In this document: positions 1,413 through 30,967 of the stretch, piece by piece
How positions within the stretch are numbered: position 1 is the stretch's first letter
How the letters are laid out: each line of letters starts with the position of its first letter
DNA from: Campylobacterota bacterium
Lineage (GTDB): Bacteria; Campylobacterota; Campylobacteria; Campylobacterales; Sulfurimonadaceae
Length of the DNA: 30,967 nucleotides
NCBI GenBank assembly: GCA_034661055.1
Contig: JAYEKO010000078.1
Coordinates: forward strand, 1-30,967
Direction of reading: 5' to 3'
The notes under the pieces: model-generated
Seen by the model: only the letters and a program-made list of their open reading frames with translations
Databases searched by the model: none
What the model was told of the DNA's origin: nothing
Position numbers and translations under genes: made by a program

Positions 1413-2186
1413 CTAAGACACCTCAATACCAAAGAGAGCAAAAAGTGCCCCTGAAATAATCAGATAGATTCCAAAAGGGGTGAAGTTGTATTTTGAGACA
1501 ATGGCTAGGAACCATTTTACCGCTATCCAGCCCACAATAAATGAGACAATAAAGCCAACAGCCAACACCTCAATATTCTCAAATGAGAGCATCTGATACT
1601 CTTTTAAAAGCATATACCCTGACGCTGCACCCATGGTCGGAATAGCCAGCAGAAATGAGAACATCATGGCAACATCGCGTTTTAGACCAATGAGCATCGC
1701 TCCTAAAATTGTACTTCCTGAGCGTGAGACACCTGGAATTAGTGAAAAAATTTGAAAAACTCCTACTTTTAATGCCTGCATATAGGTGATATTTTCAAGA
1801 AGTCTCACATCATGGTCGCTCTCTTTGTAGAAAAACTCAATAGTTAAAAAAGCGACACCAGTTAGAATCATCAATGCAACGGTGGAGTTGGCACTAAACA
1901 TCGCCTCAATCTGTTTATGAAAGAGAAGTCCTACCGCTCCTGTTGGGATAAAGGCGACAATAAGTTTGTACCAGATGTCTAAACTCTGCATGAGACGCTC
2001 TTTAAAAATAATCATAACGGAGAAGATAGGCGCAATCTGAATAATAATGTCATAAGCAGTTTTAAAACTGTTCTGTTTTACATGTAAAAGTTGCCCTACT
2101 AAGACAAGGTGCGCAGTTGAAGAGACTGGTAAAAACTCCGTTAGTCCCTCAATAATACCTAAAATAATGGAGTCAAAAATAGTCAT
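1413..2186 (-). CDS. uppP: Undecaprenyl-diphosphate phosphatase (BacA/UppP)
   Basis: GIIEGLTEFLPVSSTAH and PGVSRSGSTI motifs; multi-TM protein, 257 aa. Confidence 0.95.
   Translation of the reverse strand: MTIFDSIILGIIEGLTEFLPVSSTAHLVLVGQLLHVKQNSFKTAYDIIIQIAPIFSVMIIFKERLMQSLDIWYKLIVAFIPTGAVGLLFHKQIEAMFSANSTVALMILTGVAFLTIEFFYKESDHDVRLLENITYMQALKVGVFQIFSLIPGVSRSGSTILGAMLIGLKRDVAMMFSFLLAIPTMGAASGYMLLKEYQMLSFENIEVLAVGFIVSFIVGWIAVKWFLAIVSKYNFTPFGIYLIISGALFALFGIEVS
2077..2088. repeat. TTTACATGTAAA palindrome, exact copy (extends to 14 bp, 2076-2089)
   Basis: In uppP, encodes LHVK. Confidence 0.9.
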
Positions 2187-2212
2187 GTAAAATCTTTATA
2201 ATTTTTTATGAA

Positions 2213-2221
2213 AGTTTAGCA
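2213..2221 (-). promoter_or_regulatory. Putative extended -10 for uppP (TGCTAAACT)
   Basis: TGn plus TAAACT on the minus strand, about 26 nt upstream of the ATG. Confidence 0.4.
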
Positions 2222-2245
2222 TAATTTTACTCTTATACATTACTG

Positions 2246-2253
2246 GATATAAT
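2246..2253 (+). promoter_or_regulatory. Putative -10 box (GATATAAT) for the aminotransferase-purA operon
   Basis: gnTATAAT about 42 nt upstream of ATG 2296; AAGGA RBS before the start. Confidence 0.55.
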
Positions 2254-2295
2254 ACGCGGTTTTGAAATAATTTTTGATATATCCAAGGAATTTTA

Positions 2296-3429
2296 ATGCT
2301 ACTTTTTACTCCCGGTCCCACTCCAGTTCCTGAAAATGTTCGTAAGGCTATGGCAGACGTGACAATTCATCATCGTACTCCTGAGTTTGAGGAGATTTTT
2401 AAACGAACTCGTGAACTTTTATTAAAGCTTTTTGCTACCGAGGAAGTCGTAGTACTCGCCTCAACTGGAACGGGTGCTATGGAAGCAGCAGTAACGAACC
2501 TATGTAACAATACACTTTTAAGTGTCAATGCCGGAAAGTTTGGTGAGCGTTTTGGAAAAATTGCACGGGCATCAGATCTTAAAAATGTTGAACTCAAATA
2601 TGAGTGGAATACTCCAACAACAGTTGAAGATGTTGTTGCAGCAGTAAGAGACAACAGTAATATTGATGCGGTAGCAATTCAGATCTGTGAAAGTGCTGGT
2701 GGACTTCGTCATCCTGTTGAAGAGATTGCCGCAGCAGTTAAGGCTATTAATTCTGAGATAATGATTATTGCAGATGGGATTACAGCGATTGGTGTTGAAC
2801 GTATTGATGTTACCAATATTGACTGTGTCATTGCAGGAAGCCAAAAAGCATTTATGTTACCTCCGGGTCTCTCAATGCTCGGTCTTAGCAGTGCTGCCGT
2901 AAGTAAGGTTGGAGAAGGTAAAGGGTATTACCTTAATCTTGCATCTGAAATTAAAAAACAGCAACAAAACACAACAGCATATACTGCTGCAACAACTCTT
3001 ATTATCGGACTTTTAGAAGTTTTAGAGATGATTGAAGCGTATGAAAACGGTGGTGCTGGTAAATTGTATTGTGACACGGCACGTCGTGCTAAAGCGGTAC
3101 GTTTTGCACTTGAGGCTATTGGTTTACATGTATATCCTCAGGCTCCTGCAAAAGCGATGACGACAATTGATGATGATAATGCTGCCGAGATTCGTACTAT
3201 GCTAAAAACAGACTTTGGCGTTAATGTTGCAGGGGGCCAAGACCATCTTAAAGGTAAAATTTTTAGAATTAATCAGATGGGCCTTATTGAGCTAAGCGAT
3301 ATGGCATGGGTCGTTAACAGTGTAGAGCTCTGTCTAGCAACACTTGGACGTCGTAAATATGACGGAACTGCTAGTAGAGTTTTTAATGAAGAGTACTTTA
3401 AAACAAAATTGGCACCAAAAGAGAAGTAG
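2296..3429 (+). CDS. Class V PLP-dependent aminotransferase (alanine-glyoxylate/serine-pyruvate family)
   Basis: LFTPGPTPVP, HHRTPEF, TGTGAMEA, and PLP-lysine motif GSQKAFMLPPGL. Confidence 0.9.
   Translation: MLLFTPGPTPVPENVRKAMADVTIHHRTPEFEEIFKRTRELLLKLFATEEVVVLASTGTGAMEAAVTNLCNNTLLSVNAGKFGERFGKIARASDLKNVELKYEWNTPTTVEDVVAAVRDNSNIDAVAIQICESAGGLRHPVEEIAAAVKAINSEIMIIADGITAIGVERIDVTNIDCVIAGSQKAFMLPPGLSMLGLSSAAVSKVGEGKGYYLNLASEIKKQQQNTTAYTAATTLIIGLLEVLEMIEAYENGGAGKLYCDTARRAKAVRFALEAIGLHVYPQAPAKAMTTIDDDNAAEIRTMLKTDFGVNVAGGQDHLKGKIFRINQMGLIELSDMAWVVNSVELCLATLGRRKYDGTASRVFNEEYFKTKLAPKEK
3123..3134. repeat. Palindrome variant TTTACATGTATA (11/12)
   Basis: In aminotransferase, encodes LHVY. Confidence 0.75.
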
Positions 3430-5540
<2,111 letters not shown>

Positions 5541-5549
5541 GGATAACTT

Positions 5550-5969
5550 GTGAAAACACGCTTTACACAGCTGGTTAAATATAAAGACAGTGAGATGCAA
5601 AAGTGTGAGCGTGAGCTTTTACATGTAAATAATCAGCTTGGGGACGCTAAAGAAAAACTCCAAAACTCCTACGAGGTTTTAAGTCAACTGCAAACACCTC
5701 AAGAGGGTGAAATACGGACATTTGTACAGTCTAGAACCTCCTTGACAATTCAGCGCGATATTATAAAACAGCATACTCAAGAGGTCGATGTAATTACCAA
5801 TCGTGCCAATCAAGCTAAAGAGACACTAAAACTTGCTATGATTGAATATGAAAAATTTAAATATCTTGAGGCTGAACAGATTAAGAAGATAATGAAAAAA
5901 CGACAGGAAGCTGAAGTTAAAGAGCTTGATGAGGCTGCACTACAAACATTTATAGGTAAAAAAAGATGA
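5550..5969 (+). CDS. fliJ: Flagellar export protein FliJ-like
   Basis: 139-aa coiled coil with EYEKFKYL and KELDE; GTG start with GAGGA RBS; purA-fliJ order as in Helicobacter. Confidence 0.75.
   Translation: MKTRFTQLVKYKDSEMQKCERELLHVNNQLGDAKEKLQNSYEVLSQLQTPQEGEIRTFVQSRTSLTIQRDIIKQHTQEVDVITNRANQAKETLKLAMIEYEKFKYLEAEQIKKIMKKRQEAEVKELDEAALQTFIGKKR
5618..5629. repeat. TTTACATGTAAA palindrome, exact copy
   Basis: In fliJ, encodes LHVN. Confidence 0.9.
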
Positions 5970-7097: not shown

Positions 7098-8224
7098 TGA
7101 ATGATGCTTGGATCTATTTAGAAAATGGGACTTTTTTAAAAGCTAAAAGCTTTGGTGCGGACACTACCTCTGTAGGGGAGATAGTTTTTAATACTTCAAT
7201 GAGTGGTTATCAAGAGATTATGTCTGATCCTTCATACGCAGGGCAATTTGTTACGTTTACAGCTCCAGAAATTGGTAATGTGGGTGTTAATGCTCAAGAT
7301 ATGGAGAGTTCTAAAGCTCATGCTAAAGGGATGATAGTACGTAAATATCAGAAGCGTTATTCTAACTTTAGAGCTGAAGATTCTCTTGATGCGTTCTTAA
7401 AAGAGAATAACTGTATGGGTATTTGTGATATAGACACAAGATACTTAACAAAGATGCTACGTTCAGAAGGTGCTATGATGATGGTCGCATCAACTAAAAT
7501 TAGCGATAAAGAAGAACTTAAAAGTATCCTTGAAAACGCACCACGCATAGAAGATGTTAATTATATTGAGCAGGTGAGTACAAAGGAGTCTTATTTACAT
7601 GTAGATGGAACGTATGATGTACAAAAGTTTGTCTATAAAGAAGCCCCAGCACCGCAAGCAAAGATTGTAGCTATCGACTTTGGTGTTAAGCGTAACATCT
7701 TAAATGAGTTAACTCAGGCAGGTATTGCTGTAGAAGTTATTCCAAATGATTTTAGTGCAGACGCTTTAGTTGAGCGTTACAAAGCTAAAGATATTGACGG
7801 TGTCTTTTTATCAAATGGTCCAGGAGACCCTCTTGTTCTAAAAAAAGAGCAAGAGCAGATAAAAAAACTTATTGCCGCTAAAGTACCGATGTTTGGAATA
7901 TGTTTAGGACACCAGTTACTCTCAATTTCACATGGCTACGATACATTTAAGTTAAAATTTGGACACCATGGCGGAAATCACCCGGTAAAAAATATTGAAA
8001 CTGGTATGGTGGAGATTACAGCACAAAATCATAACTATAACGTCCCAGACAATATTACTGAAATTGCAACAGTGACCCATACAAATTTATTTGACAATAC
8101 AATTGAAGGCTTAAAATATAGTGATGCTCCAATTTTTTCAGTTCAGCATCACCCAGAGGCGAGTCCTGGTCCAAAAGAGAGTCAATACATATTTAGTGAG
8201 TTTCTTTCTCTGCTTAAAAGATAA
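7097..8224 (+). CDS. carA: Carbamoyl-phosphate synthase small (glutaminase) subunit
   Basis: GEIVFNTSMSGYQE, LSNGPGDP, GICLGHQ, QHHPEASPGP. Confidence 0.98.
   Translation: MNDAWIYLENGTFLKAKSFGADTTSVGEIVFNTSMSGYQEIMSDPSYAGQFVTFTAPEIGNVGVNAQDMESSKAHAKGMIVRKYQKRYSNFRAEDSLDAFLKENNCMGICDIDTRYLTKMLRSEGAMMMVASTKISDKEELKSILENAPRIEDVNYIEQVSTKESYLHVDGTYDVQKFVYKEAPAPQAKIVAIDFGVKRNILNELTQAGIAVEVIPNDFSADALVERYKAKDIDGVFLSNGPGDPLVLKKEQEQIKKLIAAKVPMFGICLGHQLLSISHGYDTFKLKFGHHGGNHPVKNIETGMVEITAQNHNYNVPDNITEIATVTHTNLFDNTIEGLKYSDAPIFSVQHHPEASPGPKESQYIFSEFLSLLKR
7594..7605. repeat. Palindrome variant TTTACATGTAGA (11/12)
   Basis: In the carA inter-domain linker, encodes LHVD. Confidence 0.75.
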
Positions 8225-13300: not shown

Positions 13301-15640
13301 ATGAGCTCTCATAAAGAGACCATTATACTACCAAGTTCACGGGCAATCCGTGAACAAAACTTTTCACTAAAGTCTAAAAACCAACTACTCCCATCTTTTA
13401 TAGCCATCTCCGAATTTATGCAACGTAGTACTATTGTAAACAATAGAGTTAATATTGATGAAGATAATAGAGTTATGCTACTTTTAGAAGCGGCAGATTT
13501 TAAAAACTTTTCACAATTAAATATTGAGAGAAATTTTTTTACTTTTACCTCCAACAGTAGTTATATTTTTCGTTTTTTTGAAGAGTTAAGTGCTGAAATG
13601 GTCAGCATAGAGACTTTAGAGTTAGCAGACAGTTATGCTGAGTATGAAGAGCATATTGAAATTTTAACAGAACTACATAAACGCTATAAAAAAGTGTGCG
13701 ATGATAATGCCGTATATGATAGAATCTTTTTACAAGAGTCATATATATTGAACGAAGAGTACATTAGAAGTCTTGGTAAAATTATTTTACATGTAGAAGG
13801 TTATTTAACAAATTTTGAGCTAAATATTTTACAAGAGTGTAGCCAATTAATTGAGGTCGAACTCATTTATGAAGCGAGTCAGTTTAATGAAAAATTGAGC
13901 TCAAAGTTTTTAGAGTTAGGGCTAGAACTTAAAATCGGATATGAGTATCGTATTGATTTTAAAAGAGTTCAAATTTTGTCACAAGGGAGTGTTAATAGAG
14001 TCTTTAATGTTACAACACAGTCATTTGGACAGCGACTGCTTCAAGTTGCCTATGTAAAACATAGAATTTACAAATATATTAATGCAGGGATAGAGCCTCA
14101 AAAGATTGTAGTGGTCACCCCTGATGAGAACTTCACCGACATGCTACGTGACTTTGACGATGAGGGCTATTTTAACTTTGCTAAAGGAGATGCTCTTAAT
14201 AGCTCTAAGTTCTATAGAGCACTTAAGGCTTATTATGACTATTTAGATAATAGTACTGTTGAGAATCTTAGTCGAATTAATAAGCTCTCGTTAGATAGCC
14301 AACTAAAAAGTAGTTTCAAGCGTAACATAAGTGAAATTAGTTTTGAAGATCTAATGACACCATTTTTAAACTATGAAGATAATAGTCGAATAAAAAAAAT
14401 AATTAGTGAAGAACTTTATAGTTTTAAAAATGTACTAAAGCAGTTGAGTGGTGCAACATTAAAATCAGCACTTCATCTTTTTTTAAAGCGAGTTGCATCT
14501 TGCTCAATTGATGATGTAGGTGGTGGCAAGATTACCGTTATGGGTTTATTAGAGACACGTATGGCCTCTTTTGATGGAGTTATTATTGTGGACTTTAATG
14601 AAGGTTTTGTGCCACGAAAAAGTGAAAAAGATCTCTTTTTAAACTCAAAGGTACGAGAGCGTTCCAATTTACCAACACTGCATGATAGAGAGTCTTTACA
14701 GAAACTTTACTACCATAACCTAATTAGTAGAGCTAAAGAGGTTTCAATCTCTTATGTAGAAGGAGTACATAGTTTGCCGTCACGTTTTTTAAAAGAGATG
14801 GATATTACTACTGTAACAAAGACCAATGATGAAGAGTACTCTAAAATCCTCTTTGAGCCAAAAAGTTTACATGTAAATCCAGATAAAGAGATTGAACTCA
14901 CATATGACTTTAAAAGTGAGCCACTCTCTGCTTCAAAACTCAAAATTTTTCTTACATGTAAACGGGCTTTTTACTACAAGTACATTGTAAAACTTAAGGG
15001 TCACGAGATTAAAAAAGATCTACCAAGTGAACATGAGATTGGAAATATTTTACATACTGTTCTTAAAGAGGTCTATTCGCTGCAAAACTCTTATAGTGAT
15101 TCGGATAATTTACGAAGTTCAATAGAGAGCGTATTTCAGAAGAAAATATTGGATAATGTCCTGCATGAATATCAATTAAAGCTCTGGCTAAAACGCCTAG
15201 AGCCTTTTATTGAAAATGAGATTAAAAGATTTTCTGAGGGCATTAAAGTTTTACATTGTGAAAAGCAGTTTGTTAAAGAGTATCGAGGCATAACTCTTAA
15301 TGGGGTTATTGATAGGGTAGATGAAAATGGTGAGTGTAGAGAAATTTTAGACTACAAAAGTGGTTCTTACAAACTATATAGTAAAAATGCCATAGAAAAA
15401 GCGGTAGATTTTCAGCTAGAGTTTTACTACCTCTTGCTTGGTCTAGGAGAAAAGAGTGTCGCATTTTATGACTTAAAAGAGTGTAAAATAGTAGAAGAAA
15501 ACTTTTTAAATGAAAAACTTGAACGTCTTGATGAGATTTTAAAAGAGTTGAGTCAAACAACATATTTTAGTTTTGAAATGACTGAAGATTTTTCAGTATG
15601 CAACTATTGTGATTATATTCATCTTTGTAAGAGAGGTTAG
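13301..15640 (+). CDS. addB: AddB-like helicase-nuclease subunit with PD-(D/E)XK nuclease and Fe-S staple cysteines
   Basis: LPSSRAIR, VMGLLETR, LSASKLKIFLTCKR, GVIDRVD..ILDYKSG, C-terminal CNYCDYIHLC. Confidence 0.88.
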   Translation: MSSHKETIILPSSRAIREQNFSLKSKNQLLPSFIAISEFMQRSTIVNNRVNIDEDNRVMLLLEAADFKNFSQLNIERNFFTFTSNSSYIFRFFEELSAEMVSIETLELADSYAEYEEHIEILTELHKRYKKVCDDNAVYDRIFLQESYILNEEYIRSLGKIILHVEGYLTNFELNILQECSQLIEVELIYEASQFNEKLSSKFLELGLELKIGYEYRIDFKRVQILSQGSVNRVFNVTTQSFGQRLLQVAYVKHRIYKYINAGIEPQKIVVVTPDENFTDMLRDFDDEGYFNFAKGDALNSSKFYRALKAYYDYLDNSTVENLSRINKLSLDSQLKSSFKRNISEISFEDLMTPFLNYEDNSRIKKIISEELYSFKNVLKQLSGATLKSALHLFLKRVASCSIDDVGGGKITVMGLLETRMASFDGVIIVDFNEGFVPRKSEKDLFLNSKVRERSNLPTLHDRESLQKLYYHNLISRAKEVSISYVEGVHSLPSRFLKEMDITTVTKTNDEEYSKILFEPKSLHVNPDKEIELTYDFKSEPLSASKLKIFLTCKRAFYYKYIVKLKGHEIKKDLPSEHEIGNILHTVLKEVYSLQNSYSDSDNLRSSIESVFQKKILDNVLHEYQLKLWLKRLEPFIENEIKRFSEGIKVLHCEKQFVKEYRGITLNGVIDRVDENGECREILDYKSGSYKLYSKNAIEKAVDFQLEFYYLLLGLGEKSVAFYDLKECKIVEENFLNEKLERLDEILKELSQTTYFSFEMTEDFSVCNYCDYIHLCKRG
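13786..13797. repeat. Palindrome variant TTTACATGTAGA (11/12)
   Basis: In addB, encodes LHVE. Confidence 0.75.
14866..14877. repeat. TTTACATGTAAA palindrome, exact copy
   Basis: In addB, encodes LHVN. Confidence 0.9.
14951..14962. repeat. Palindrome variant CTTACATGTAAA (11/12)
   Basis: In addB, alternative frame, encodes LTCK. Confidence 0.75.
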
Positions 15641-15642
15641 CA

Positions 15643-18384
15643 GTGAGTTTTGAGCCTTTTTTAGCTTATGAAGCGAGTGCTGGAAGTGGCAAGACATTTA
15701 TGCTTGTCGTAAGGTACCTGAGTCTACTTTTTATGGGAAAAGATCCATCTAAAATCTTAGCACTGACATTTACAAACAAAGCAGCCAATGAGATGCTTGA
15801 GCGAATAATTAACACCTTAGAGACTTTGCACCACAAAAGAGAGGGTGAGTTAAAAGAGATTAGTGCTGTTATTGGTAAAAGTCCTGATGAAATTTTGCAA
15901 CTTCGAGACGAGGTCTTAAAACGTTTTTTACATAGCGATACTAAAGTGATGACAATCGATAAATTCTTGGCCGCTGTTTTGCGTAAATTTTCACTTCATG
16001 CGGGCATTATGCCGACATTTTCTACTCATGAGTCGCAACATGAGATTAAAATTTTAATTCGATTTTTAAATGAACTTTTTGTGTCAGTTAAAGAGGACTC
16101 GTTAATTAATCTTACTCTGATTAATCATGCTAAACTCAGTGATACCATAGGACTTTTAAATCAACTTTACATGCTTAAAAGCAGACTTGATACATCGCAA
16201 TACGCGCCACAGACCTATTTACATGTAAAAGATGAGATATTGGCTGAAGTCAATAGACTAAAAGTGTTGGTACATACACATAATGATGCATCAAAAACTG
16301 CCAAAAATAGTGTCGATGTCAATAGTTTTGAAGCATTTTTAAAAAAGACCTGGTACACTAAAGAGAGCTTAAACTATTCAACTTATAAAAAATGTTTTGT
16401 GCCACAAATGGATGAACTGCTACTAAGCATACAGGCAAAGCTAAAGCAGTATTTTTATCTTAAAGAGCAGAACTATTTTTACGAGCTTTTTTCACTAGTA
16501 GATATTTATGAAAAAGGTAAGCTTTCTGTTGCCAAAGAAGATAGTGAACTCGGTTTTGATGATGTTACAGCACTAGTCCATAAGATGTTTTCAGATGAGA
16601 GTCTTTCTCGTGATTTTCTCTACTTTAGACTTGATGCTGAGATTGATCATCTACTGTTAGATGAATTTCAAGATACTAGTATAGTACAGTTTGAAATTCT
16701 TGCTCCCATCATTAATGAGATCTGTTCAGGTGTTGGTGTCAATGATGAGAAATCCCTCTTTTTTGTAGGCGATGTTAAGCAATCAATTTACCGTTTTAGA
16801 GGCGGAACCAAGGAACTTTTTTATGAAGTAGCATCACGTTATAATGTAAACGTAGCAGTACTTGGTACGAACTATAGAAGTTCAAAGTCAGTAGTTGAGT
16901 TTGTAAATAGTATCTTTATAGATAAAATAGATGCTTACAAGCCACAACAGATTAAAAAATATGCTAATGAGGGTGCTGTATCGGTTATTGAAAATGATGA
17001 ACTTTTAGAAGCAGCAGTTTTACATGTAAACCATCTACTTAGCCTAGGAGTAGATAGCAATGCTATTGCAATCTTATGTGCAACAAATGCAGATGGTGTT
17101 AAAATTGAAGAGGCTTTAAACGTACAAAACATTGATGTCGTGACCGAGACTACCTCAAAGCTCATTAACCAACAAGCCATACAAGCACTTATTGAGTATT
17201 TAAAATATATCTATTTTAAAGAGGAGATTTATGCGCGTAACTTCTTCTCACTAATTAATACTAAACCAGAGCCAATTGCTTATGTTGACTGTAAACAGCT
17301 AAATTTAGGAGCACATATAAAAAGTGTCATAGAAAAATATGAGCTTTTTAATGGTGATTTAAATAACATCAGTTTTCTTGAAACACTTTATAACTATAGT
17401 GATATTGAAGCCCTTATTTATGAATATGAGCGTATTGATACCACTTCTGTTCGGGCAGAGGAGATGGGTGTTAAAGTGCTGACAGTACATAAATCTAAAG
17501 GTTTAGAGTTCGATCATGTTATTGTTCTGGATCGATTTGGAGCTAAAAATTCTAATAGCGGCAGATTGATTTTTGAGTATGACGGTGTACATTTGCAAAA
17601 TGTATTCTTGCGTCAAAAAGGACGGGACAGCTTAGATGAAGCGTATAAAAATGCATTGGATAAAGATGCAAAGTTAGGCTTAGAAGACCGATTTAATGCT
17701 CTATATGTAGCTTTTACAAGAGCTAGAGAGAGTCTATTGGTTATTAAAAAGAGCAAAAGTTCACAGTTTGATATTTTAGACCTTGAAGTGATGAGCAGTG
17801 GAAATTTTCACCATAAAGAGGAAGAGGTGCAGACAAACAACGCCTCAAAAGAGAAGGCTGTGGTTGTGAATGATATCGCATACACCCCACTAAATTTAGG
17901 TCGCCAAGAAGAGTTGCTCAGAGGCGAGGAAGAGGATGAACAAAACCTGCACGCAATTGATTTTGGTTTAGCCTTGCACTACACATTGGAGATGGTAAAT
18001 CTGCATAATAGCAGTACTTTGGATGCGACTATGAACAGCGTCAAAAATAGATTTGGAGCACGTTTAGAGCATGAGGATTTTGATGCAATAAAACAGCGTG
18101 TCTTAAATCTTCTTAGTAACACTGAATTTCAAAGAGCTATTGTAGGTGAGTGTCATAAAGAACAACCCATAGCCTATAATGGTGAACTGCGTTATTTAGA
18201 TTTAATGGTCAATAGAGAAGATGAGGCGATTGTCATAGACTATAAGAGTTCACAACTCTTTTTAGAGAAGCATCTTCAGCAGATATCTTTTTATAAAAAA
18301 GCCCTCAAATCTATTTTAAATAAGCCAGTAACTTCTTATCTAATTTATCTGCTTGAAGAAGAAACTAAAATAGTTGAAGTTTAA
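15643..18384 (+). CDS. addA: AddA/RecB-like UvrD helicase-nuclease
   Basis: ASAGSGKT, LTFTNKAA, LDEFQDT, VGDVKQSIYRFRG, NYRS, TVHKSKGLE, LYVAFTRA; C-terminal nuclease YLDL...IDYKS; GTG start. Confidence 0.92.
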   Translation: MSFEPFLAYEASAGSGKTFMLVVRYLSLLFMGKDPSKILALTFTNKAANEMLERIINTLETLHHKREGELKEISAVIGKSPDEILQLRDEVLKRFLHSDTKVMTIDKFLAAVLRKFSLHAGIMPTFSTHESQHEIKILIRFLNELFVSVKEDSLINLTLINHAKLSDTIGLLNQLYMLKSRLDTSQYAPQTYLHVKDEILAEVNRLKVLVHTHNDASKTAKNSVDVNSFEAFLKKTWYTKESLNYSTYKKCFVPQMDELLLSIQAKLKQYFYLKEQNYFYELFSLVDIYEKGKLSVAKEDSELGFDDVTALVHKMFSDESLSRDFLYFRLDAEIDHLLLDEFQDTSIVQFEILAPIINEICSGVGVNDEKSLFFVGDVKQSIYRFRGGTKELFYEVASRYNVNVAVLGTNYRSSKSVVEFVNSIFIDKIDAYKPQQIKKYANEGAVSVIENDELLEAAVLHVNHLLSLGVDSNAIAILCATNADGVKIEEALNVQNIDVVTETTSKLINQQAIQALIEYLKYIYFKEEIYARNFFSLINTKPEPIAYVDCKQLNLGAHIKSVIEKYELFNGDLNNISFLETLYNYSDIEALIYEYERIDTTSVRAEEMGVKVLTVHKSKGLEFDHVIVLDRFGAKNSNSGRLIFEYDGVHLQNVFLRQKGRDSLDEAYKNALDKDAKLGLEDRFNALYVAFTRARESLLVIKKSKSSQFDILDLEVMSSGNFHHKEEEVQTNNASKEKAVVVNDIAYTPLNLGRQEELLRGEEEDEQNLHAIDFGLALHYTLEMVNLHNSSTLDATMNSVKNRFGARLEHEDFDAIKQRVLNLLSNTEFQRAIVGECHKEQPIAYNGELRYLDLMVNREDEAIVIDYKSSQLFLEKHLQQISFYKKALKSILNKPVTSYLIYLLEEETKIVEV
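16218..16229. repeat. TTTACATGTAAA palindrome, exact copy
   Basis: In addA, encodes LHVK. Confidence 0.9.
17019..17030. repeat. TTTACATGTAAA palindrome, exact copy
   Basis: In addA, encodes LHVN. Confidence 0.9.
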
Positions 18385-20883: not shown

Positions 20884-21512
20884 CTATATTATTTGACTTA
20901 GACGGAACCCTAATTGATTCTACAGAAGCAATTTTAGAGAGTTTTCATAACTCTTTTAAAGTGCATAGGCATACAGCACCGAGCGATGAGAAGATTACTG
21001 CACTCATTGGTCATCCATTAGATGTAATGTATAGAGAGTTGGGTGTTAATGAGAATCAAGTGTGGAATTTTGTAGCAACCTATAAAGAGCATTATCGAAT
21101 AATTTCAAAAGAGAAGACTTTAATGCTAAAAAATGCTGTTGAAGCAGTAGAGTTGGCGAGTGCTCATGCTCGTGTTGGAATTGTGACAACGAAAACAGGA
21201 AAATACTCACGCGTACTCCTAGAGCACTTTGGAATTATGCACCATTTTGAAGTACTTGTAGGGCGCGAAGATGTCCAGAATCCAAAGCCTCATGCAGAAC
21301 CTATAGAAAAAGCAGTAGCGTTTTTTACATGTAATAAAGAGACCTGCTGGATGATTGGAGATACTCGTTTAGATTTAGAATCAGCCCAAAATGCTAAAAT
21401 TAATGCTGTTGGAGTACTTAGCGGTTACGATAATGCACAACAGTTGTTGAAATATTGCGATATTATAAAAAAAGATGCACTCGAAGCGGTACAATTCATC
21501 ATAAAGCAGTGA
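20880..21512 (+). CDS. HAD-superfamily hydrolase (phosphoglycolate phosphatase-like)
   Basis: LFDLDGTLIDS, KPHAEP, MIGDT..D. Likely GTG start at 20880 (GTGA overlap with upstream stop); the track start at 20868 is also possible. Confidence 0.88.
   Translation: MTILFDLDGTLIDSTEAILESFHNSFKVHRHTAPSDEKITALIGHPLDVMYRELGVNENQVWNFVATYKEHYRIISKEKTLMLKNAVEAVELASAHARVGIVTTKTGKYSRVLLEHFGIMHHFEVLVGREDVQNPKPHAEPIEKAVAFFTCNKETCWMIGDTRLDLESAQNAKINAVGVLSGYDNAQQLLKYCDIIKKDALEAVQFIIKQ
21324..21335. repeat. Palindrome variant TTTACATGTAAT (11/12)
   Basis: In the HAD gene, alternative frame, encodes FTCN. Confidence 0.75.
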
Positions 21513-24862: not shown

Positions 24863-26224
24863 CTACTTTTTACTTCTATAATTTACTTCAAAACTTTCGG
24901 AGCTTTCGGCATTAACTACTACTGTATAGGTAACTAAGTTTCCTTTTTTGTATCGGTATGCCATAGAGGAATCAATACTACTAGTTGAGTTGTTATTAAA
25001 TGGAACCTGTAGCTCTACTTTTTTATTTTCATTGCTACTATTTTTTACTACATACTTAACCGTAGCATCGTAGTAGCGACGATCATCATTACGTTTAACT
25101 ACAGTCTGTGTTACTTTTACATCAAAGTTCTCACCAAGTCTTAGATGAATTGGAGTATCTTTGGCAGTATGCTTAATTGATGTTTCACCCAATAAGATAG
25201 TCATCCCTTTAGATTTAGAGTAGGTGCGCACAATGCCCTTAGGTAGAGGAAAGTCCATACCATCAAAATGAATGTATTGATTTACACCACGCTTAACTTC
25301 TCCATGAAGATAATTAGGGTTTGAAAGATAGACATCATAGCGTCTATTTACATGTAAATTTTTCTCATCAATAAATTTTATCTGTGTCTTCTCATTGTTA
25401 GCCAGGTTGACTTTAAAGGGAATAGAGTAGAAATGGTAACCTTCATGTGCAACATGCGCGACATTATCTTGTTCTGCCATAGGTGCAGACATTACCATAG
25501 CTTTTCTATACTTAACTTCTGGTCGCTGTGCTCTGTTGATGTCACCAGCTAGTACATGTAAATTAGTATCTTTAAAGGCTTTTCCTGAACGGTTGTTAAT
25601 TGTAATCCATCCACTTAAATCTACATTGTCACCATCTAAATTTACAATATAATCACTTTTCCAGCCAACTTTTTTGATTACATAATCAAGTTTCATCGTG
25701 GTGTCTAAATCTTTAAGAGAGTTAATATTCCAGACAAGCGAGGGTTTGGTAATAAGTGCATTTGGTACTGTTTTAAAGATAACATTACTGCTTTGAACTG
25801 AAATAATATTGTCTTCTTTGGTTCGCACTATACAGAAGTTGCCATCATGTGAAAGTAGAGTTCCCTCTATTGTCTCAAAGATTTTGGCGTCTTTTAGCAC
25901 TTTAACATGGACGACCTTATCGATATGAGCTTCTAATAGTTTTGAGCGTGTTAGCTTGTCAAATCGAAACTGTTGAGAGTTGAGTTTAATTGTTGATGGA
26001 AGCTCAATATTAACCGAGTCTGTCTCAATAGTATTGGCTACTCCTTCATAAACAATATGGCTGTCATGCCTATTTACATGTAAATTGCGCTCCTCATGAA
26101 CCAGTGCAATAGAGCCGTTATAGACAATGAGTGAATTCGTTTTCAAATCACTACTGAGAGCTGCACCAAAAGTACTATTTACAACTAGTAAAGATGAGAT
26201 GATACTTAAAGAAAATATTTTCAT
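24863..26224 (-). CDS. DUF4139-like exported protein
   Basis: Signal peptide; LIVYN..ALVHEER; WKSDY; LSGWITINNRSG; LHVLAGDINR; PLPKG.VR.Y; AAGGAG RBS. Confidence 0.75.
   Translation of the reverse strand: MKIFSLSIISSLLVVNSTFGAALSSDLKTNSLIVYNGSIALVHEERNLHVNRHDSHIVYEGVANTIETDSVNIELPSTIKLNSQQFRFDKLTRSKLLEAHIDKVVHVKVLKDAKIFETIEGTLLSHDGNFCIVRTKEDNIISVQSSNVIFKTVPNALITKPSLVWNINSLKDLDTTMKLDYVIKKVGWKSDYIVNLDGDNVDLSGWITINNRSGKAFKDTNLHVLAGDINRAQRPEVKYRKAMVMSAPMAEQDNVAHVAHEGYHFYSIPFKVNLANNEKTQIKFIDEKNLHVNRRYDVYLSNPNYLHGEVKRGVNQYIHFDGMDFPLPKGIVRTYSKSKGMTILLGETSIKHTAKDTPIHLRLGENFDVKVTQTVVKRNDDRRYYDATVKYVVKNSSNENKKVELQVPFNNNSTSSIDSSMAYRYKKGNLVTYTVVVNAESSESFEVNYRSKK
25347..25358. repeat. TTTACATGTAAA palindrome, exact copy (14 bp, 25346-25359)
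   Basis: In the DUF4139-like gene, encodes NLHVNR. Confidence 0.9.
25551..25562. repeat. Palindrome variant AGTACATGTAAA (10/12)
   Basis: In the DUF4139-like gene, encodes NLHVL. Confidence 0.65.
26073..26084. repeat. TTTACATGTAAA palindrome, exact copy (14 bp, 26072-26085)
   Basis: In the DUF4139-like gene, encodes NLHVNR. Confidence 0.9.
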
Positions 26225-26244
26225 TAGAAACTCCTTTTAATATA

Positions 26245-26253
26245 TGCTACACT
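26245..26253 (+). promoter_or_regulatory. Putative extended -10 for luxS (TGCTACACT)
   Basis: TGn-TACACT 24 nt upstream of the ATG; GAGGG RBS. Confidence 0.45.
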
Positions 26254-26277
26254 ATCAAAAAAAATAGAGGGTAACTT

Positions 26278-26784: not shown

Positions 26785-27087
26785 ATGTTTATTTTACTAC
26801 CAATGGACTCAGACAACACTCAGGAGGGAAAGTTAGTCTCACTTAATGATGTCAAAAAATGGGCACTTATTGAATTTGATGCTGGCGAGGTTATTGAAAT
26901 AAAGTACTTTGATACTCGCGAGGAGATAGAAGAGCTTATTGAGATTGTTGTTGTAGTAAGTGATAATGAGTATGTCTGGCCTTTTATAGAAAATCAGATT
27001 ATTGTACTAGTGGCTCATACTCAGCGTAGTATTGATGAGGTCATGGAGTCATTTATCTTTAAAGAACTGCATGAAATGGCGTATTAA
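26785..27087 (+). CDS. Acidic hypothetical protein (possibly NifB/NifX-like fold)
   Basis: 100 aa, abuts the luxS stop, AGGAG RBS; the fold assignment is a weak guess. Confidence 0.65.
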   Translation: MFILLPMDSDNTQEGKLVSLNDVKKWALIEFDAGEVIEIKYFDTREEIEELIEIVVVVSDNEYVWPFIENQIIVLVAHTQRSIDEVMESFIFKELHEMAY

Positions 27088-27567
27088 GTGAAACAGTTTT
27101 TAGAACTTTTTAACCCCTATCCAGGGAATCAGTTTCTACTGCTTACATCTCATAGTGATGAGATTACACCAGTTCTCGCACAGATGCTAGAGAATGTTAA
27201 TGGAACCTTGAGTCTACACTGTTTTCCTGGCAAACATGATGATGTGAAACTTGACAATATTAAACGTAGCGATATTGTAGATTTTAAATCACTTCCTAGA
27301 GCATTACCACGAAGTAACGACATGGTTATTCTTCAAGATGTGTATGCTCAGCATGAATTAAAAGAACGCATTATAAAACAGATGTATGCAACACTGGCAA
27401 ATACAGGTGATATTATCATTATGCAAAAACGCGGCACTATGGATTTTGAAAAAATGCTTGAGATGTTAGAAGCGTTTGAATTTCGTGCAGGAAATGCCAT
27501 TGATTGCCATCCTGATTACGACTTGGTAATGGGAAAAAAGATGCACATGTGGGGTAATGGGTTATAG
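27088..27567 (+). CDS. Hypothetical protein ending KKMHMWGNGL; integration target of the islet
   Basis: 159 aa, GTG start abutting the upstream stop; DMVILQDV..H...YATLANTGDIII weakly resembles the C-terminal half of a methyltransferase fold. Confidence 0.7.
   Translation: MKQFLELFNPYPGNQFLLLTSHSDEITPVLAQMLENVNGTLSLHCFPGKHDDVKLDNIKRSDIVDFKSLPRALPRSNDMVILQDVYAQHELKERIIKQMYATLANTGDIIIMQKRGTMDFEKMLEMLEAFEFRAGNAIDCHPDYDLVMGKKMHMWGNGL
27549..27560 (+). repeat. Left direct repeat (attL-like) GTGGGGTAATGG
   Basis: Identical to 30514-30525; encodes WGNG in both copies. Confidence 0.8.
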
Positions 27568-27734
27568 GACTTTTTTATACCCCTCAAATACTCACTTAAG
27601 CCCCTACATTATTGGGTTTTATTTAAAATATTATTTATTATATGAGTCATTCCATTTCAAGTACTTCTAGTCTAAAAAGTTTTACTTCAAGTTACTACTG
27701 TATACTTTAGAATATAAATGCTTAAAGAGAACCT

Positions 27735-29057
27735 ATGAATATAGAAGCTTTGATTAAAGAAAATATTTTATTGCAGCAACAGCTAGATGACTATAAAGGT
27801 TTGTTTGAAACTATAGATATTCCTATAATAATTATTGACGAGTCTGGCACATACCTTGACTATAATAGAGTATATTATAATCTTATGGGATATACAGATA
27901 AAAGTGAATTAATAAATTATCATCCGGCTAATGTATCTCCAAAATTTCAACCAGATGGGCTTGAATCATTTTCTAAAGCTAATGATATGATTCAAATGGC
28001 ATTGGAAAAAGGAAAACATAGTTTTGAATGGATGCATAAAAGACCTGATGGCAAAGAATTTCTTTCATATGTTACATTAGATGCAATAGACTATAATCAG
28101 AAAAAGTGTATACGTGCAGTTATAAATGATATATCAGAAAGAAAAAAACTAGAGCGCGTTGTTAAAGAGAAAACTAAAAAGATTGAAGAGCAAACTAAAA
28201 AGTTATTAAAAGCGCAACATATCTCCAAGATGGGTTTTTGGGAATTGAACCTAACAAATAATCAACTTTATTGGTCAGATGAAATATATAATATATTTGA
28301 AATTGATAAATCAGAATTTAAAGCATCTTATGATGGGTTTTTAAATGTTATTCATCCAGATGACAGAGGTTTAGTTAACGAAGCTTATTCTAATTCTTTA
28401 AAAACTAAAGAAAATTATTCTATTGAACATAGACTTTTAATGGATGATGGCAGAATTAAATGGGTTAGAGAAGAGTGTAATATTGAGTTTGATGTAGATA
28501 GAAATCCACTTATATCAGTCGGTGTTGTAATAGATATAACTGAACTTCATTTGACTCAACAAAAATTGATAGAACAGGCATATGCTGATGATTTGACAAA
28601 ACTTAATAATAGAAAATCTTACACTGAAAACATTCAAAAATTACTTTCTCAATACAAAAGATATCAAACACCATTTTCAATAATTATGTATGATATTGAC
28701 AATTTTAAACAAATCAATGATGTCTATGGTCATATTATTGGGGATAATGTATTAATTGAAATGTCACAACTAATTAAATCTCATCTTAGAGAGAGTGACT
28801 ATATATTTAGAATTGGTGGAGAAGAATTTATTATTTTACTTACTAAAACACAGATTAATAAAGCAAAATTAGTTTCTGAAAAAATCAGAAATAGTGTTGA
28901 AAATAATTTAAATACCATTAAAGATAAAAAAATTACAATTAGTATAGGTTTAACTGAAGTAGAAGAAAATGATACTGAAGATTCAATATTTCAAAGAGTT
29001 GATTCTCTTATGTATGAGTCAAAAAATAGTGGTAAAAATAGAGTAACTTCAGAGTAA
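27735..29057 (+). CDS. PAS-PAS-GGDEF diguanylate cyclase
   Basis: Two PAS/PAC regions (SPKFQPDG...FEWMHKRPDG; YWSDEIY..IHPDDR..DGRIKW); DDLTKLNNR, DIDNFKQINDVYGH; RESD I-site five residues before an intact GGEEF. Confidence 0.93.
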   Translation: MNIEALIKENILLQQQLDDYKGLFETIDIPIIIIDESGTYLDYNRVYYNLMGYTDKSELINYHPANVSPKFQPDGLESFSKANDMIQMALEKGKHSFEWMHKRPDGKEFLSYVTLDAIDYNQKKCIRAVINDISERKKLERVVKEKTKKIEEQTKKLLKAQHISKMGFWELNLTNNQLYWSDEIYNIFEIDKSEFKASYDGFLNVIHPDDRGLVNEAYSNSLKTKENYSIEHRLLMDDGRIKWVREECNIEFDVDRNPLISVGVVIDITELHLTQQKLIEQAYADDLTKLNNRKSYTENIQKLLSQYKRYQTPFSIIMYDIDNFKQINDVYGHIIGDNVLIEMSQLIKSHLRESDYIFRIGGEEFIILLTKTQINKAKLVSEKIRNSVENNLNTIKDKKITISIGLTEVEENDTEDSIFQRVDSLMYESKNSGKNRVTSE

Positions 29058-29088
29058 ATCTTGTTCCTTACAATAATGCTATTAAGTA

Positions 29089-30285
29089 TTATAACTTAAT
29101 AAAACCAAATAACCACAAGGGTATTTTTTTATTATTAGATGTAAAATCTATATCTATTGCTAAATAACTATTATTTAACTCTTTAATCTGTGAAAAAGAT
29201 TTATTTTTACCACCAACTTCAAAAATATACTCATCCACCTTAAAGTCTCCAATATCACTGTAGTAAATATTTTTAAAGCAATTTACAAAGTAAGTTTCTC
29301 TCAAAACTCCAATATCAAGTTCTAAATTAATTTTATTGGCATATGCATATAAAATATTAGTATTTGAAAAAAGTAGCTTTTGTGGTTTTTTAGATATTTT
29401 TTTTGAAAACTTCCTCATAGACTTAAAAATACCAGTATTATCCAATATATTTAGGTAGGTGTAGAGTGTTGGCTCACTTACACCAAACTCCCGCGCCAAA
29501 GATGCGACATTAACACTGAAATGTTTATTTGATGAGACCACAAAAAATATAAGCTTCTCAAAAATAGATATATGAGCATAATCTATTTTATTTAATGATG
29601 GTATATCTTCATGAATGATTTTATCTTGTGCATTATAAAGTTTTTGATTAAAACTATCTATACCTTCTAAATAAAATGGATATGCACCATATCGAAGATA
29701 ATTTTTAAATTCAGCATAGAGATTTTCATATTTGAATACTAGTTCTTTGGATATATTATCACTGTTAGTTAATATTTCATCTAAAGAGTAAGTGACAAGT
29801 TTTACATCATTTGTGATTTCAAAATACTCTTTAAAACTTAGTGTGGGCATGGTGTAAATAACTAATCTTCTGCTTAAATCATATTTCTCATATAATATAT
29901 TGAGCATTGATGATCCACTGATTCTAATTGTAAGATTTGGAAAACTATCGTAGATATTTTTAATCTCTTGTACCCAGTTTCTGTACTTATGCACTTCATC
30001 AACAACTACAACTCTGCCACCAAGCGAGTAAAATTCATCTACTAAATTATATAGCTTTAGGTTTATAAACTCTATATCATCTCCGCTCATATATAAACAC
30101 TTTTTTGTATGTGTTTTTATATATTGAAACAACAAAGTAGTTTTACCTACTCCTCTTGCTCCTATGAGACCTATTAATCTCTCGTCACTATTGATTATAT
30201 TAAAATACTCTTCCCTTATATAATCTGTATTTACTTTTGAGATATTTAGCTCTTGTTTTCGAGTAAAATAATCTATATTCATCAT
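29089..30285 (-). CDS. AAA+ ATPase (AAA_14/DUF4143-like) with HTH and C-terminal nuclease-like motif
   Basis: Walker A GARGVGKT, Walker B VVVDEVH, SGSS, LSRR, YLRYGAYP, HTH-like LAREFGVSEPTLYTYL, GDF...IFEVG. Confidence 0.85.
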   Translation of the reverse strand: MMNIDYFTRKQELNISKVNTDYIREEYFNIINSDERLIGLIGARGVGKTTLLFQYIKTHTKKCLYMSGDDIEFINLKLYNLVDEFYSLGGRVVVVDEVHKYRNWVQEIKNIYDSFPNLTIRISGSSMLNILYEKYDLSRRLVIYTMPTLSFKEYFEITNDVKLVTYSLDEILTNSDNISKELVFKYENLYAEFKNYLRYGAYPFYLEGIDSFNQKLYNAQDKIIHEDIPSLNKIDYAHISIFEKLIFFVVSSNKHFSVNVASLAREFGVSEPTLYTYLNILDNTGIFKSMRKFSKKISKKPQKLLFSNTNILYAYANKINLELDIGVLRETYFVNCFKNIYYSDIGDFKVDEYIFEVGGKNKSFSQIKELNNSYLAIDIDFTSNNKKIPLWLFGFIKL

Positions 30286-30307
30286 AAATCCTAAAATGTA
30301 TTTAGTG

Positions 30308-30316
30308 ATTATAGCA
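30308..30316 (-). promoter_or_regulatory. Extended -10 (TGCTATAAT) for the AAA ATPase gene
   Basis: Minus strand TGCTATAAT 22 nt upstream of the ATG; AGGA RBS. Confidence 0.6.
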
Positions 30317-30433
30317 TTATTTACATAAATATATATATGATACCTCTAAAAACCCTAAATAGCCTTGTTATAGTTTTGAAATATGATACTATTGTGATTG
30401 TAAAATATCTTATATCAACTTTGGAGGAAGCAG

Positions 30434-30532
30434 ATGTCAGTATCATTAAATTATGACCAAATGGCAATATCTGAAATGTTTATAATATTAGAAGAATTAT
30501 GGGATAAGCAACCGTGGGGTAATGGTCTGTGA
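30434..30532 (+). pseudogene. 32-aa chimeric ORF: probable truncated addiction-module antitoxin N-terminus fused to the duplicated WGNGL tail
   Basis: MSVSLNYDQMAISEMFIILEELWDKQPWGNGL*; GGAGG RBS at 30423-30427. The antitoxin resemblance (TIGR02574/PF09720-like E..LW) is from memory only. Confidence 0.45.
30514..30525 (+). repeat. Right direct repeat (attR-like) GTGGGGTAATGG
   Basis: Identical to 27549-27560; followed by TCTGTGA, which overlaps the next gene's GTG start. Confidence 0.8.
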
Positions 30533-30967
30533 TTGATGCTGTAAAGAGCCAAGATGGCTCTTTTACTGCATATTCAAAAGAGTATGATGAGCATTATCAC
30601 TCTACCAGAGATGGAGCATTAGGGGAGTCTCTCAATAAACATGTTATTCCTGCTCTTAACCATGTAAAAGAGAGATCTGAAATTACTATTTTAGATATCT
30701 GTTTTGGATTGGGTTTTAATACGCTTGCTACGCTTTACTATCTACATGTAAATCACATCAATAAAAAAGTCACTATAGTCTCTCCTGAACTTGATGGAGC
30801 ACTCGTAAAGGGACTAAAAGACTTTGAGTATCCAGATGTTTTTAAACCTTATTTGCATGTAGTAGAAGCGATTAGTAATCGTCATGAGTACCAAGATGAC
30901 AATTTACATGTAAATGTCATTGTAGGTGATGCAAGAGCCTATTTGCAAACCACAAATGAACAGTTTG
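30529..30967 (+). CDS. mnmD: MnmC/MnmD-type tRNA mnm5s2U34 methyltransferase domain, 3' end outside window; not in ORF track
   Basis: Manual translation from GTG: MIDAVKSQDGSFTAYSKEYDEHYHSTRDGALGESLNKHV...ILDICFGLGFNTL...VIVGDARAYL. Confidence 0.8.
   Translation, partial: MIDAVKSQDGSFTAYSKEYDEHYHSTRDGALGESLNKHVIPALNHVKERSEITILDICFGLGFNTLATLYYLHVNHINKKVTIVSPELDGALVKGLKDFEYPDVFKPYLHVVEAISNRHEYQDDNLHVNVIVGDARAYLQTTNEQF
30741..30752. repeat. Palindrome variant TCTACATGTAAA (11/12)
   Basis: In the mnmD-like gene, encodes LHVN. Confidence 0.75.
30903..30914. repeat. TTTACATGTAAA palindrome, exact copy (14 bp, 30902-30915)
   Basis: In the mnmD-like gene, encodes LHVN. Confidence 0.9.

Follow-up and report, generated by a model that had tools for sequence, protein, structure and literature searches.

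Why should one perfect palindrome recur throughout the genes of a short bacterial contig? The question was raised by contig JAYEKO010000078.1 of the assembly GCA_034661055.1, from a Campylobacterota bacterium of the Sulfurimonadaceae. The whole stretch that was analysed, 30,967 bp, is called the window. It is dotted with the 12-bp palindrome TTTACATGTAAA and with further copies of the 8-bp core TACATGTA, which the original prediction read as a highly iterated palindrome (HIP) comparable to cyanobacterial HIP1 or to DNA uptake sequences (DUS). Genomes are numbered with G (G000 is the genome of the window), contigs with C (the window is C78), loci with L, families with f and genera with g. All eight exact 12-mers that had been claimed are present at their positions, against none in 100 dinucleotide shuffles. 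The core occurs 15 times, the number counted before, and shuffled windows contain 0.89 copies on average and three at most. The seven inexact copies match 11 (six copies) or 10 (one copy) of the 12 positions, each with one perfect half-site (Table 1).

TACATGTA is almost certainly a real HIP-type element. The HIP1- and DUS-like reading held, with a motif that is genome-wide, intragenic and far above codon-aware nulls. The excess, the exact core, the soft and genus-specific flanks, the conservation of sites, the patchy phylogeny and the exclusive link of one orphan CATG-methylase lineage to motif-rich genomes (those with at least 99 cores) are direct observations. The assembly of G000 comprises 1,908,352 bp in 92 contigs, with 36.2% G+C and a completeness of 83%. 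It holds 246 exact 12-mers, 899 cores, 1103 ACATGT and 6220 CATG. An order-3 Markov model expects 31.8 cores, which gives an observed to expected ratio (O/E) of about 28. The next best palindromic 8-mer stays below an O/E of 5, and the reversed control word occurs 33 times. Among 10-mers, TACATGTAAA leads by a wide margin with 942 occurrences; the first unrelated one has 180. The concern voiced with the prediction, that many other words might be enriched likewise, did not materialise: none is enriched like TACATGTA. CATG itself is not enriched (O/E 0.71, maximal-order Markov). Under the same model other short palindromes are under-represented in this genome as well, that is, GATC (0.57), GGCC (0.61) and CTAG (0.66).

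Genes were taken as 1689 non-overlapping open reading frames (ORFs) of at least 100 amino acids, which cover 90.1% of the genome and come from a crude caller made for this analysis. Within these genes (about 1,720 kb) lie 747 cores; the other 152 are not fully contained in a gene (about 188 kb). Per kb this amounts to approximately 0.43 cores in genes and 0.81 elsewhere, an about twofold difference. The comparison with Markov and protein-preserving nulls that the original prediction had proposed thus came out in its favour for genes, too. Shuffling of synonymous codons within each gene, with proteins kept, left 128.5 ± 9.8 genic cores (maximum 144 in 30 runs) and codon permutation 32.2 ± 6.5. 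Codon choice and protein sequences are both bent, because the observed 747 exceeds both nulls. Several peptides are inflated over expectation: LHV (412 versus 79), LHVN (140 versus 4), LHVK (93 versus 5.9) and FTCK (36 versus 0.9). The genic cores are read as xTA-CAT-GTA in 506 cases (Leu/Ile/Val-His-Val), as xxT-ACA-TGT in 194 and as TAC-ATG-TAx in 47.

The sites are spread evenly over the genome and are not confined to one region, which had been considered at the outset as the mark of a domain signal. No contig is significantly motif-poor and only C85 is significantly rich. Spacing within contigs is random-like, with a coefficient of variation (CV) of 0.954 against 0.995 ± 0.036 in simulations, and nine gaps exceed 8 kb where 11.6 are expected. 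Cores are uniformly distributed along the gene length. Counts per gene are Poisson-like, with 1149 site-free genes versus 1119 expected. No gene class is outstandingly enriched; the best single gene has seven cores in 2655 bp (p = 2e-4 among 1689 genes). Intergenic densities are 1.07 per kb between convergent, 0.89 between tandem and 0.82 between divergent genes. The even spread over contigs, genes and intergenic classes therefore leaves no link to promoters or terminators and no matS/parS-like domain signal. Signals of the matS, parS or KOPS (FtsK-orienting polar sequences) type, with few copies, in one region or polar, are ruled out by the even contig distribution and the Poisson-like gene counts. 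Extrachromosomal DNA carries the word as well. The 39.9-kb plasmid of G046 (contig C2, 39,868 bp; L259, L260) has 14 cores, a near-chromosomal density, and two copies of the control word.

The distribution across Campylobacterales is patchy. In a set of 41 genomes including G000, nine have 421–1299 cores, namely G000–G005 of one genus and G007, G009 and G023 of three other genera. The other 32 have 2–58 cores, and the reversed control word has 1–62 copies in the 41 genomes. Sampled evenly, 401 genomes of the order included 46 motif-rich ones, confined to two families. Family f23 is motif-rich in 36 of 38 genomes, with up to 1727 cores, and the window's own family, f1, in 10 of 39, scattered over the family. 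The other 24 families have none among 324 genomes and 50 cores at most. A second sample of 201 genomes showed the same two motif-rich families, which are probably the Sulfurimonadaceae (f1) and the Sulfurospirillaceae (f23). Core density across genomes ranges from 0.04 to 0.6 per kb, and counts within f1 vary even inside a genus, from 8 to 850 cores in g2 and from 99 to 914 in g38. In a PurA tree, which is a single-gene and approximate phylogeny, the motif-rich genera are not grouped together: G023 is placed inside a clade of eight motif-poor genera, G009 is paired with a motif-poor genus, and four motif-poor genera fall in one clade with G007 and the genus of G000. Syntenic DNA gave the same contrast, with 31 cores in 105 kb from seven motif-rich relatives versus one core in 134 kb from eight motif-poor ones.

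The original prediction had taken the 12-mer as the unit. This had to be revised: the unit is the exact 8-mer, with soft and independent flanks, and the 12-mer is the dialect of the genus of G000 only. The information profile has an invariant 8-bp core, flanked on the left by A (0.60), T (0.68) and T (0.73) and by their mirror image on the right, and is uninformative beyond ±3 bp. The two flanks vary independently. TT on the left has a probability of 0.526, AA on the right of 0.522 and both together of 0.274, which equals the product (chi-square p = 0.97); 203 of the 899 cores have neither. The 121 purely intergenic sites have the same flank preferences as the genic sites of each reading frame, hence the flanks are part of the DNA signal. 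Other lineages use other flanks around the same core. The dialect is TTTACATGTAAA in the genus of G000, CTTACATGTAAG in G007 and G009, CTACATGTAG in G023 and CTTTACATGTAAAG in loci recorded as Sulfurospirillum. Because of these differences, a survey with the exact 12-mer undercounts other genera. Core density is alike in all four sampled lineages (0.43–0.65 per kb) despite the different flanks, and the excess in samples of four relatives is about 25- to 45-fold.

Maintenance of the sites was followed in orthologues from samples of four relatives (G004, G007, G009 and G023) aligned to G000, where a site counted as shared if the core was at the same aligned position. In G004, of the same genus and with 74% DNA identity, 76 of 109 sites are shared; the baseline identity of 8-mers is 11–18%, or 21–33% where amino acids are kept. 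Sharing is 14 of 49 in G007 (69% DNA identity, baseline 8–14%), 18 of 67 in G009 (63%, baseline 4–8%) and 4 of 45 in G023 (64%, baseline 4–8%), the last being at baseline. Conservation of sites between species above the background, as in HIP1-type palindromes, is thus found. Where the partner has no core, it usually differs at three to five of the eight positions, in gapless alignment; substitution is therefore the way in which sites arise, and near-sites do not last long. The site at 2079–2086 in the bacA/uppP-like gene affects the protein. The genus of G000 has Leu-His-Val there, and the glycine that the histidine replaces is kept in all 11 genomes of other genera aligned there, nine of them motif-poor. 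They read Leu-Gly-(Val/Leu/Ile), one of them Met-Gly-Val. Here a DNA signal has clearly taken precedence over a conserved residue. The higher density outside genes, the same flanks everywhere and the exchange of glycine for histidine at a core indicate that the pressure acts at the level of DNA.

The suggested link to CATG methylation stood in part. G000 encodes an orphan methylase of the NlaIII/HpyI family, and a special lineage of this family is restricted to motif-rich genomes; the link failed in four motif-rich genomes without a D12-class methylase, which are taken up below. The methylases of G000 are one D12-class adenine methylase and, at a contig end, one cytosine-5 methylase next to a BglII-like nuclease; no PF01555 enzyme is encoded. 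The D12-class enzyme has 326 amino acids and is encoded at C91:11104–12081 (L001:1369–2349, minus strand) between xseA and an S49 peptidase gene. The sources of homologues with 53–54% identity list them as 'Modification methylase NlaIII'. The kinship with the NlaIII and IceA-HpyIM systems shows in an identity of 52–54% between the G000 methylase and family members, including the G028 enzyme, whose gene adjoins an IceA-like nuclease gene. Homologues of motif-poor genomes often lie beside such an IceA-like (R.NlaIII-like) gene (G028, G140, G101, G064, G333 and G073, with weaker matches in four more). The iceA1-hpyIM locus has been described as an NlaIII-like CATG system (PMC13340068). By homology, the methylase family is very probably CATG-specific. 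The cytosine-5 methylase, cut by the contig end, and the adjoining 203-amino-acid nuclease (C22:2240–4947, L002) probably form a type II restriction-modification system that has no connection with the motif.

Methylases of the NlaIII family occur in 133 of the 401 genomes: 31 belong to the 46 motif-rich ones and 102 to the 355 others. All 85 collected sequences were typed at the position of G000 residue 304. A histidine is present in 29 sequences, from 24 genomes (7 of f1, 17 of f23) and five named loci. All of them come from motif-rich genomes (514–1727 cores) or motif-rich loci, none from the typed motif-poor genomes, and all are without the conserved KADKTENRNHK stretch. The motif-rich loci with the f23-type methylase are six Sulfurospirillum records and 'Arcobacter sp. 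MAG-3'. The remaining 56 sequences have tyrosine or another amino acid, and 42 of these are from motif-poor genomes or loci. Histidine for tyrosine at this position together with the loss of KADKTENRNHK may reflect a changed DNA specificity. A single His-type clade was not rejected by an approximately unbiased (AU) test (p = 0.85), in which the tree so constrained was 25 log-likelihood units better than the quick free tree; the group was defined after the alignment had been seen and its tree has long branches. The His-type lineage appears to depend on the motif, in that it was never found without it, and the motif is not strictly dependent on the methylase.

Unlike in the NlaIII and IceA-HpyIM systems, the methylases of motif-rich genomes are orphans. 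His-type genes stand among housekeeping genes that vary by lineage (xseA, recO, trmA, tsaD, a serine hydrolase and a transglutaminase-like gene), and no common partner gene was found beside them. An IceA-like nuclease gene (ICEA, PF05315) was found in none of the 19 motif-rich panel genomes and in one of the 38 genomes of the panel, a motif-poor one of another family. Restriction sites are normally avoided, not enriched. A target site of restriction-modification is ruled out by the approximately 28-fold enrichment, the lack of a nuclease gene beside the methylase and the lack of an IceA-like gene in 19 of 19 genomes. In f23, the 12 genomes typed as His-type (12 of 12) have 0.45–0.58 cores per kb and genomes without a methylase match 0.04 to 0.50, although these are related genomes and not independent samples. 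The order serine hydrolase–methylase–tsaD is shared by three genera of one family (L256 in G132, L011 in G023 and L008 in G024), which suggests an old chromosomal position, motif-rich or not. Broken methylase copies with internal stop codons are present in G403 (C21:15070–15456) and G035 (C8:138777–139977); the iceA-like gene next to the G035 copy is likewise disrupted.

Among known elements HIP1 comes closest. This cyanobacterial palindrome, GCGATCGC, is 15- to 300-fold over-represented and conserved within and between ORFs (PMC5861425). It was tied to orphan methylases, with enzymes for GATC and CGATCG named (PMC4390886). TACATGTA likewise is an exact 8-bp palindrome with a tens-fold excess, above the at least 15-fold excess of HIP1-type palindromes, inside and between genes beyond codon-aware nulls, and its sites are conserved between species. 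Orphan methylases read an inner sub-word of HIP1 and, by homology, would read CATG here; both words have lineages without the motif and a suspected role in DNA transfer. The differences are the other phylum, an AT-rich word with CATG as the inner word, an associated alpha-class N6-adenine (m6A) methylase of the NlaIII/HpyI family, flank dialects by genus and a presence that varies within a single genus. Deviations from HIP1 are biased towards the outer positions (Elhai, PMC4390886), whereas outer-position one-mismatch variants are the most depleted here. The distribution of HIP1 is periodic at 10–90 kb (Xu et al. 2018, PMC5861425). No bacterial report of TACATGTA was found among the papers inspected from the open full text of PubMed Central and bioRxiv, with subscription journals, REBASE and the supplementary tables of the HIP1 papers outside this search. 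In PMC4687349, Sulfurospirillum appears in connection with GATC only. The word is apparently an undescribed HIP-type palindrome.

What keeps such a word in place? Among the mechanisms considered, a tag for self DNA in uptake or recombination is favoured here, as a serious but tentative possibility. Some factor would read the exact 8-bp word, with its two-fold symmetry, in double-stranded DNA. A pressure on the DNA would write and keep the word chromosome-wide and override codon choice and sometimes protein sequence. The word would serve as a 'self' tag on DNA imported or recombined in natural transformation. Import or integration would favour fragments with the tag, whose central CATG is probably adenine-methylated in genomes that have the orphan methylase. 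Such biased transfer, together with recombination, would spread the word, as proposed for DUS, for uptake signal sequences (USS) and recently for HIP1, and the flanks would co-evolve with a dimeric reader.

There are precedents for such a tag. Campylobacter jejuni imports only DNA methylated by CtsM at RA(m6A)TTY (PMC10046745). Transformation of Synechococcus is up to 100-fold higher with methylated HIP1 (bioRxiv 2024.09.10.611283), and HIP1 abundance correlates with DNA-transfer genes (PMC13756078). These precedents, the excess, the DNA-level pressure, the maintained sites, the dialects on a fixed core, the presence of ComEC (PF03772, 41 of 41 genomes searched) and of a secretin (PF00263, 38 of 38), the His-type methylase and the missing IceA-like nuclease (19 of 19 motif-rich panel genomes) count in favour of a tag for uptake or recombination. 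By analogy, the CtsM rule of C. jejuni would be the nearest mechanistic precedent in the same order, CtsM being an orphan adenine methylase that marks a short palindrome (PMC10046745). Unlike in the CtsM gate, the word is an 8-mer enriched approximately 28-fold, the methylase is of the NlaIII family and some motif-rich genomes are without it. RAATTY is a frequent 6-mer and is not known to be hyper-iterated. DUS of Neisseriaceae and USS of Pasteurellaceae are asymmetric words that occur in both orientations, with an excess in the terminators of convergent genes. They share with TACATGTA a density of about one per 1–2 kb genome-wide, genes included, a distorted proteome, stable sites, dialects on a conserved core and a family-level distribution. 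Unlike them, TACATGTA is a palindrome with on-average symmetric flanks.

Several observations weigh against a self-DNA tag. Known uptake sequences are asymmetric and TACATGTA is a perfect palindrome. There is no excess between convergent genes (1.07 versus 0.82–0.89 per kb elsewhere in intergenic DNA). One-mismatch variants of USS are enriched; those of TACATGTA are not, with 755 observed versus 987 expected (O/E 0.41–1.11). The most depleted class, NACATGTA, keeps ACATGT and loses the outer T/A (72 observed versus 148 expected). Recognition is thus all-or-none over 8 bp, in the manner of restriction-type enzymes. One-mismatch words in genomes of intermediate density, examined for a decay signature, do not exceed the control word (ratios of 0.88–1.06), an uninformative result. 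Tagging of the plasmid is explained equally well by a pressure on any resident replicon. Competence genes are equally present in motif-rich and motif-poor genomes, so that no receptor was identified. Natural competence of these genera is undocumented in the open literature searched. Methylation by the His-type lineage cannot be obligatory, since 14 sequences from genomes with at least 99 cores, that is, motif-rich or intermediate ones, are not of the His-type (G023, G078, G162, G187, G194, G227, G280, G308, G366, G373, G380, G403, G404 and the plasmid copy in G046). A D12-class methylase is absent from four of the five motif-rich genomes checked: G158 (one contig, 611 cores), G316 (914), G149 (1128) and G220 (1201). 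These four rule out the methylase as a necessary factor, and the 102 motif-poor carriers rule out the family as a sufficient one.

A fuller version of the self-DNA tag makes TACATGTA the first uptake or self-recognition sequence of the Campylobacterota. It would be palindromic, gated by adenine methylation and read by a dimeric receptor or recombination factor, and its genus-specific dialects would limit the exchange of genes among lineages. This version is somewhat doubtful. If it were true, the methylated RAATTY gate of C. jejuni and the HIP1 puzzle would be two faces of one mechanism, and the presence and absence of the motif within genus g2 (8 to 850 cores) would be a natural experiment for finding the reader.

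Methylation-coupled biased repair, the ratchet of Elhai (PMC4390886), is a rather unlikely alternative. In this model a repair nuclease reads the hemimethylated exact palindrome after replication. The loss of a site by mutation is always repaired, newly created sites sometimes escape repair, and sites thus accumulate to a plateau wherever the system is present. The all-or-none core with its depleted one-mismatch words, NACATGTA most of all, is nearer to the fidelity of a restriction enzyme than to a tolerant receptor. A perfect palindrome with a central CATG, an orphan CATG-type methylase lineage found only in motif-rich genomes, the tagged plasmid and the narrow plateau of the His-type f23 genomes (0.45–0.58 cores per kb, against 0.04–0.50 in methylase-free ones) fit as well. 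MutS would be available, its mismatch-binding domain (MutS_I, PF01624) being present in 33 of the 38 panel genomes, but it does not separate the genomes, motif-rich and motif-poor alike having it. MutH (PF02976) and Vsr (PF03852) were each found in none of five motif-rich genomes, and the IceA-like nuclease is missing from all 19. The methylase by homology reads CATG, yet CATG has an O/E of 0.71, and four motif-rich genomes are without the methylase. The sites are conserved here as in HIP1, and conservation of the HIP1 sites was the argument of Xu et al. against their replenishment through repair (PMC5861425).

For HIP1, the same authors proposed selection for nucleoid organisation. Transferred to TACATGTA, the sites would bind an abundant dimeric protein that structures the chromosome. 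The palindromic symmetry, the independent flanks of the half-sites and the even spread over contigs, unrelated to gene orientation or position in the gene, agree with such a protein. So do sites conserved well above background and lineage-specific flanks, which fit a co-evolving protein. The explanation is nonetheless unlikely. Each of about 900–1700 sites would have to be selected strongly enough to replace a conserved glycine and inflate LHVN 35-fold, with a small benefit per site. Spacing at short range is random-like (CV as above), close relatives do without the word (g2, 8 to 850 cores) and no candidate protein was found.

Chi sites are asymmetric, strand-skewed and read on one strand. 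A Chi-like signal, by which AddAB would switch from DNA degradation to RecA loading and the high density would mark or protect self DNA, is very improbable. The window contains an AddB/AddA-like pair (13301–18384), and a copy about every 2 kb is within the range of Chi. However, a word that is a perfect 8-bp palindrome between symmetric flanks suggests a reader of double strands and permits no skew, and the O/E of 28 and the distortion of proteins are far above Chi values. If AddAB specificity shifted by point mutation, the lack of correspondence between gene presence and motif would be explained. A Chi-like role is also considered in the HIP1 preprint (bioRxiv 2024.09.10.611283).

That TACATGTA is a side effect of codon usage or dinucleotide bias, of a frequent peptide motif or of a small mobile element has next to no probability: the single frame xTA-CAT-GTA of 506 of the 747 genic cores would fit, and dinucleotide shuffles (0.89 versus 15 per window), codon-permuted and protein-preserving nulls (32 and 128 versus 747), a higher density outside genes, conserved flanks that stop at ±3 bp, gains by substitution in ungapped alignments instead of insertion, and only 0–74 copies of the reversed control word in all 401 genomes speak against it. 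Codon bias, a peptide motif, a regional signal and a mobile element are each ruled out by the nulls, the even spread and the ungapped alignments. Elements of the repetitive extragenic palindromic (REP), miniature inverted-repeat transposable (MITE) or Rickettsia type are rejected because there is no information past ±3 bp, the top 16-mers have at most 24 copies and the sites align gaplessly to unrelated sequence in relatives.

HIP1 has been unexplained for three decades. Its near-universal presence in cyanobacteria is part of the difficulty, since few contrasts are left. TACATGTA is an independent HIP1-like system in another phylum that offers such contrasts between close relatives, even within one genus. 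It also offers a spread of densities, genus dialects and a marker methylase lineage that travels only with the motif. Sulfurospirillum has cultured species with complete genomes, and the motif in Sulfurospirillum records thus provides cultured hosts for direct study. The replacement of a conserved glycine by histidine shows how strongly a DNA-level signal can bend protein sequence.

Table 1. The 15 copies of the motif in the window. Positions are those of the window; (-) marks the minus strand; the reading is that of the core in the encoded protein.
Copy	Position	Gene	Reading
exact 12-mer, TTTACATGTAAA	2077..2088 (core 2079-2086)	bacA/uppP-like gene 1413-2186(-)	Leu-His-Val
core, 11/12 flanks, TTTACATGTATA	3123..3134	aminotransferase-like gene	Leu-His-Val
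exact 12-mer	5618..5629	fliJ-like gene	Leu-His-Val
core, 11/12 flanks, TTTACATGTAGA	7594..7605	carA	Leu-His-Val
core, 11/12 flanks	13786..13797	addB-like gene 13301-15640	
exact 12-mer	14866..14877	addB-like gene	
core, 11/12 flanks, CTTACATGTAAA	14951..14962	addB-like gene	Thr-Cys frame
exact 12-mer	16218..16229	addA-like helicase gene 15643-18384	
exact 12-mer	17019..17030	addA-like helicase gene	
core, 11/12 flanks, TTTACATGTAAT	21324..21335	HAD hydrolase gene	Thr-Cys frame
exact 12-mer	25347..25358	DUF4139 gene 24863-26224(-)	
core, 10/12 flanks, AGTACATGTAAA	25551..25562	DUF4139 gene	
exact 12-mer	26073..26084	DUF4139 gene	
core, 11/12 flanks, TCTACATGTAAA	30741..30752	ORF 30529-30966	
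exact 12-mer	30903..30914	ORF 30529-30966	

The genes around the window sites are ordinary housekeeping genes, that is, bacA/uppP-like, purA, fliJ, carA, ccoN, the addB/addA-like pair, a HAD hydrolase and a GGDEF protein. In the aminotransferase-like gene, the core (at 3125) uses a conserved Leu-His position and is also present at the same position in G004, G002 and, independently, G023. The core in the fliJ-like gene was found in none of the relatives aligned there. The pair encoding an AddB-like PD-(D/E)XK nuclease and an AddA-like UvrD helicase has five cores in 5.1 kb, about twice the genic average, which is not significant alone.

The G046 plasmid encodes ParA/ParB, YafQ, HicB and AbiEii toxin–antitoxin proteins, McrBC, Sir2 and two UmuC/UmuD-like pairs. 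No obvious reader gene was seen on it. Its methylase gene of the NlaIII family holds 4 of the 14 cores, and its 3′ end is replaced by an IS21 element. Viral contigs scanned with the Sulfurospirillum dialect gave mostly chance matches, 55 of 80 loci having the seeded copy only. An inovirus-like prophage region on a viral contig of 11,868 bp (L343) encodes Zot-like and pIV-like proteins and a transposase. It has seven cores, all in the left 6 kb and none in the phage-gene half. A phage contig of 15,054 bp with 29% G+C (L292), encoding a terminase and a sigma-like factor, has intergenic CTTTACA/TGTAAAG arrays beside TTGACA boxes at 1700–3700, with five copies of CTTTACATGTAAAG within 180 bp. These arrays resemble phage promoter or operator repeats and are probably separate from the genome-wide motif.

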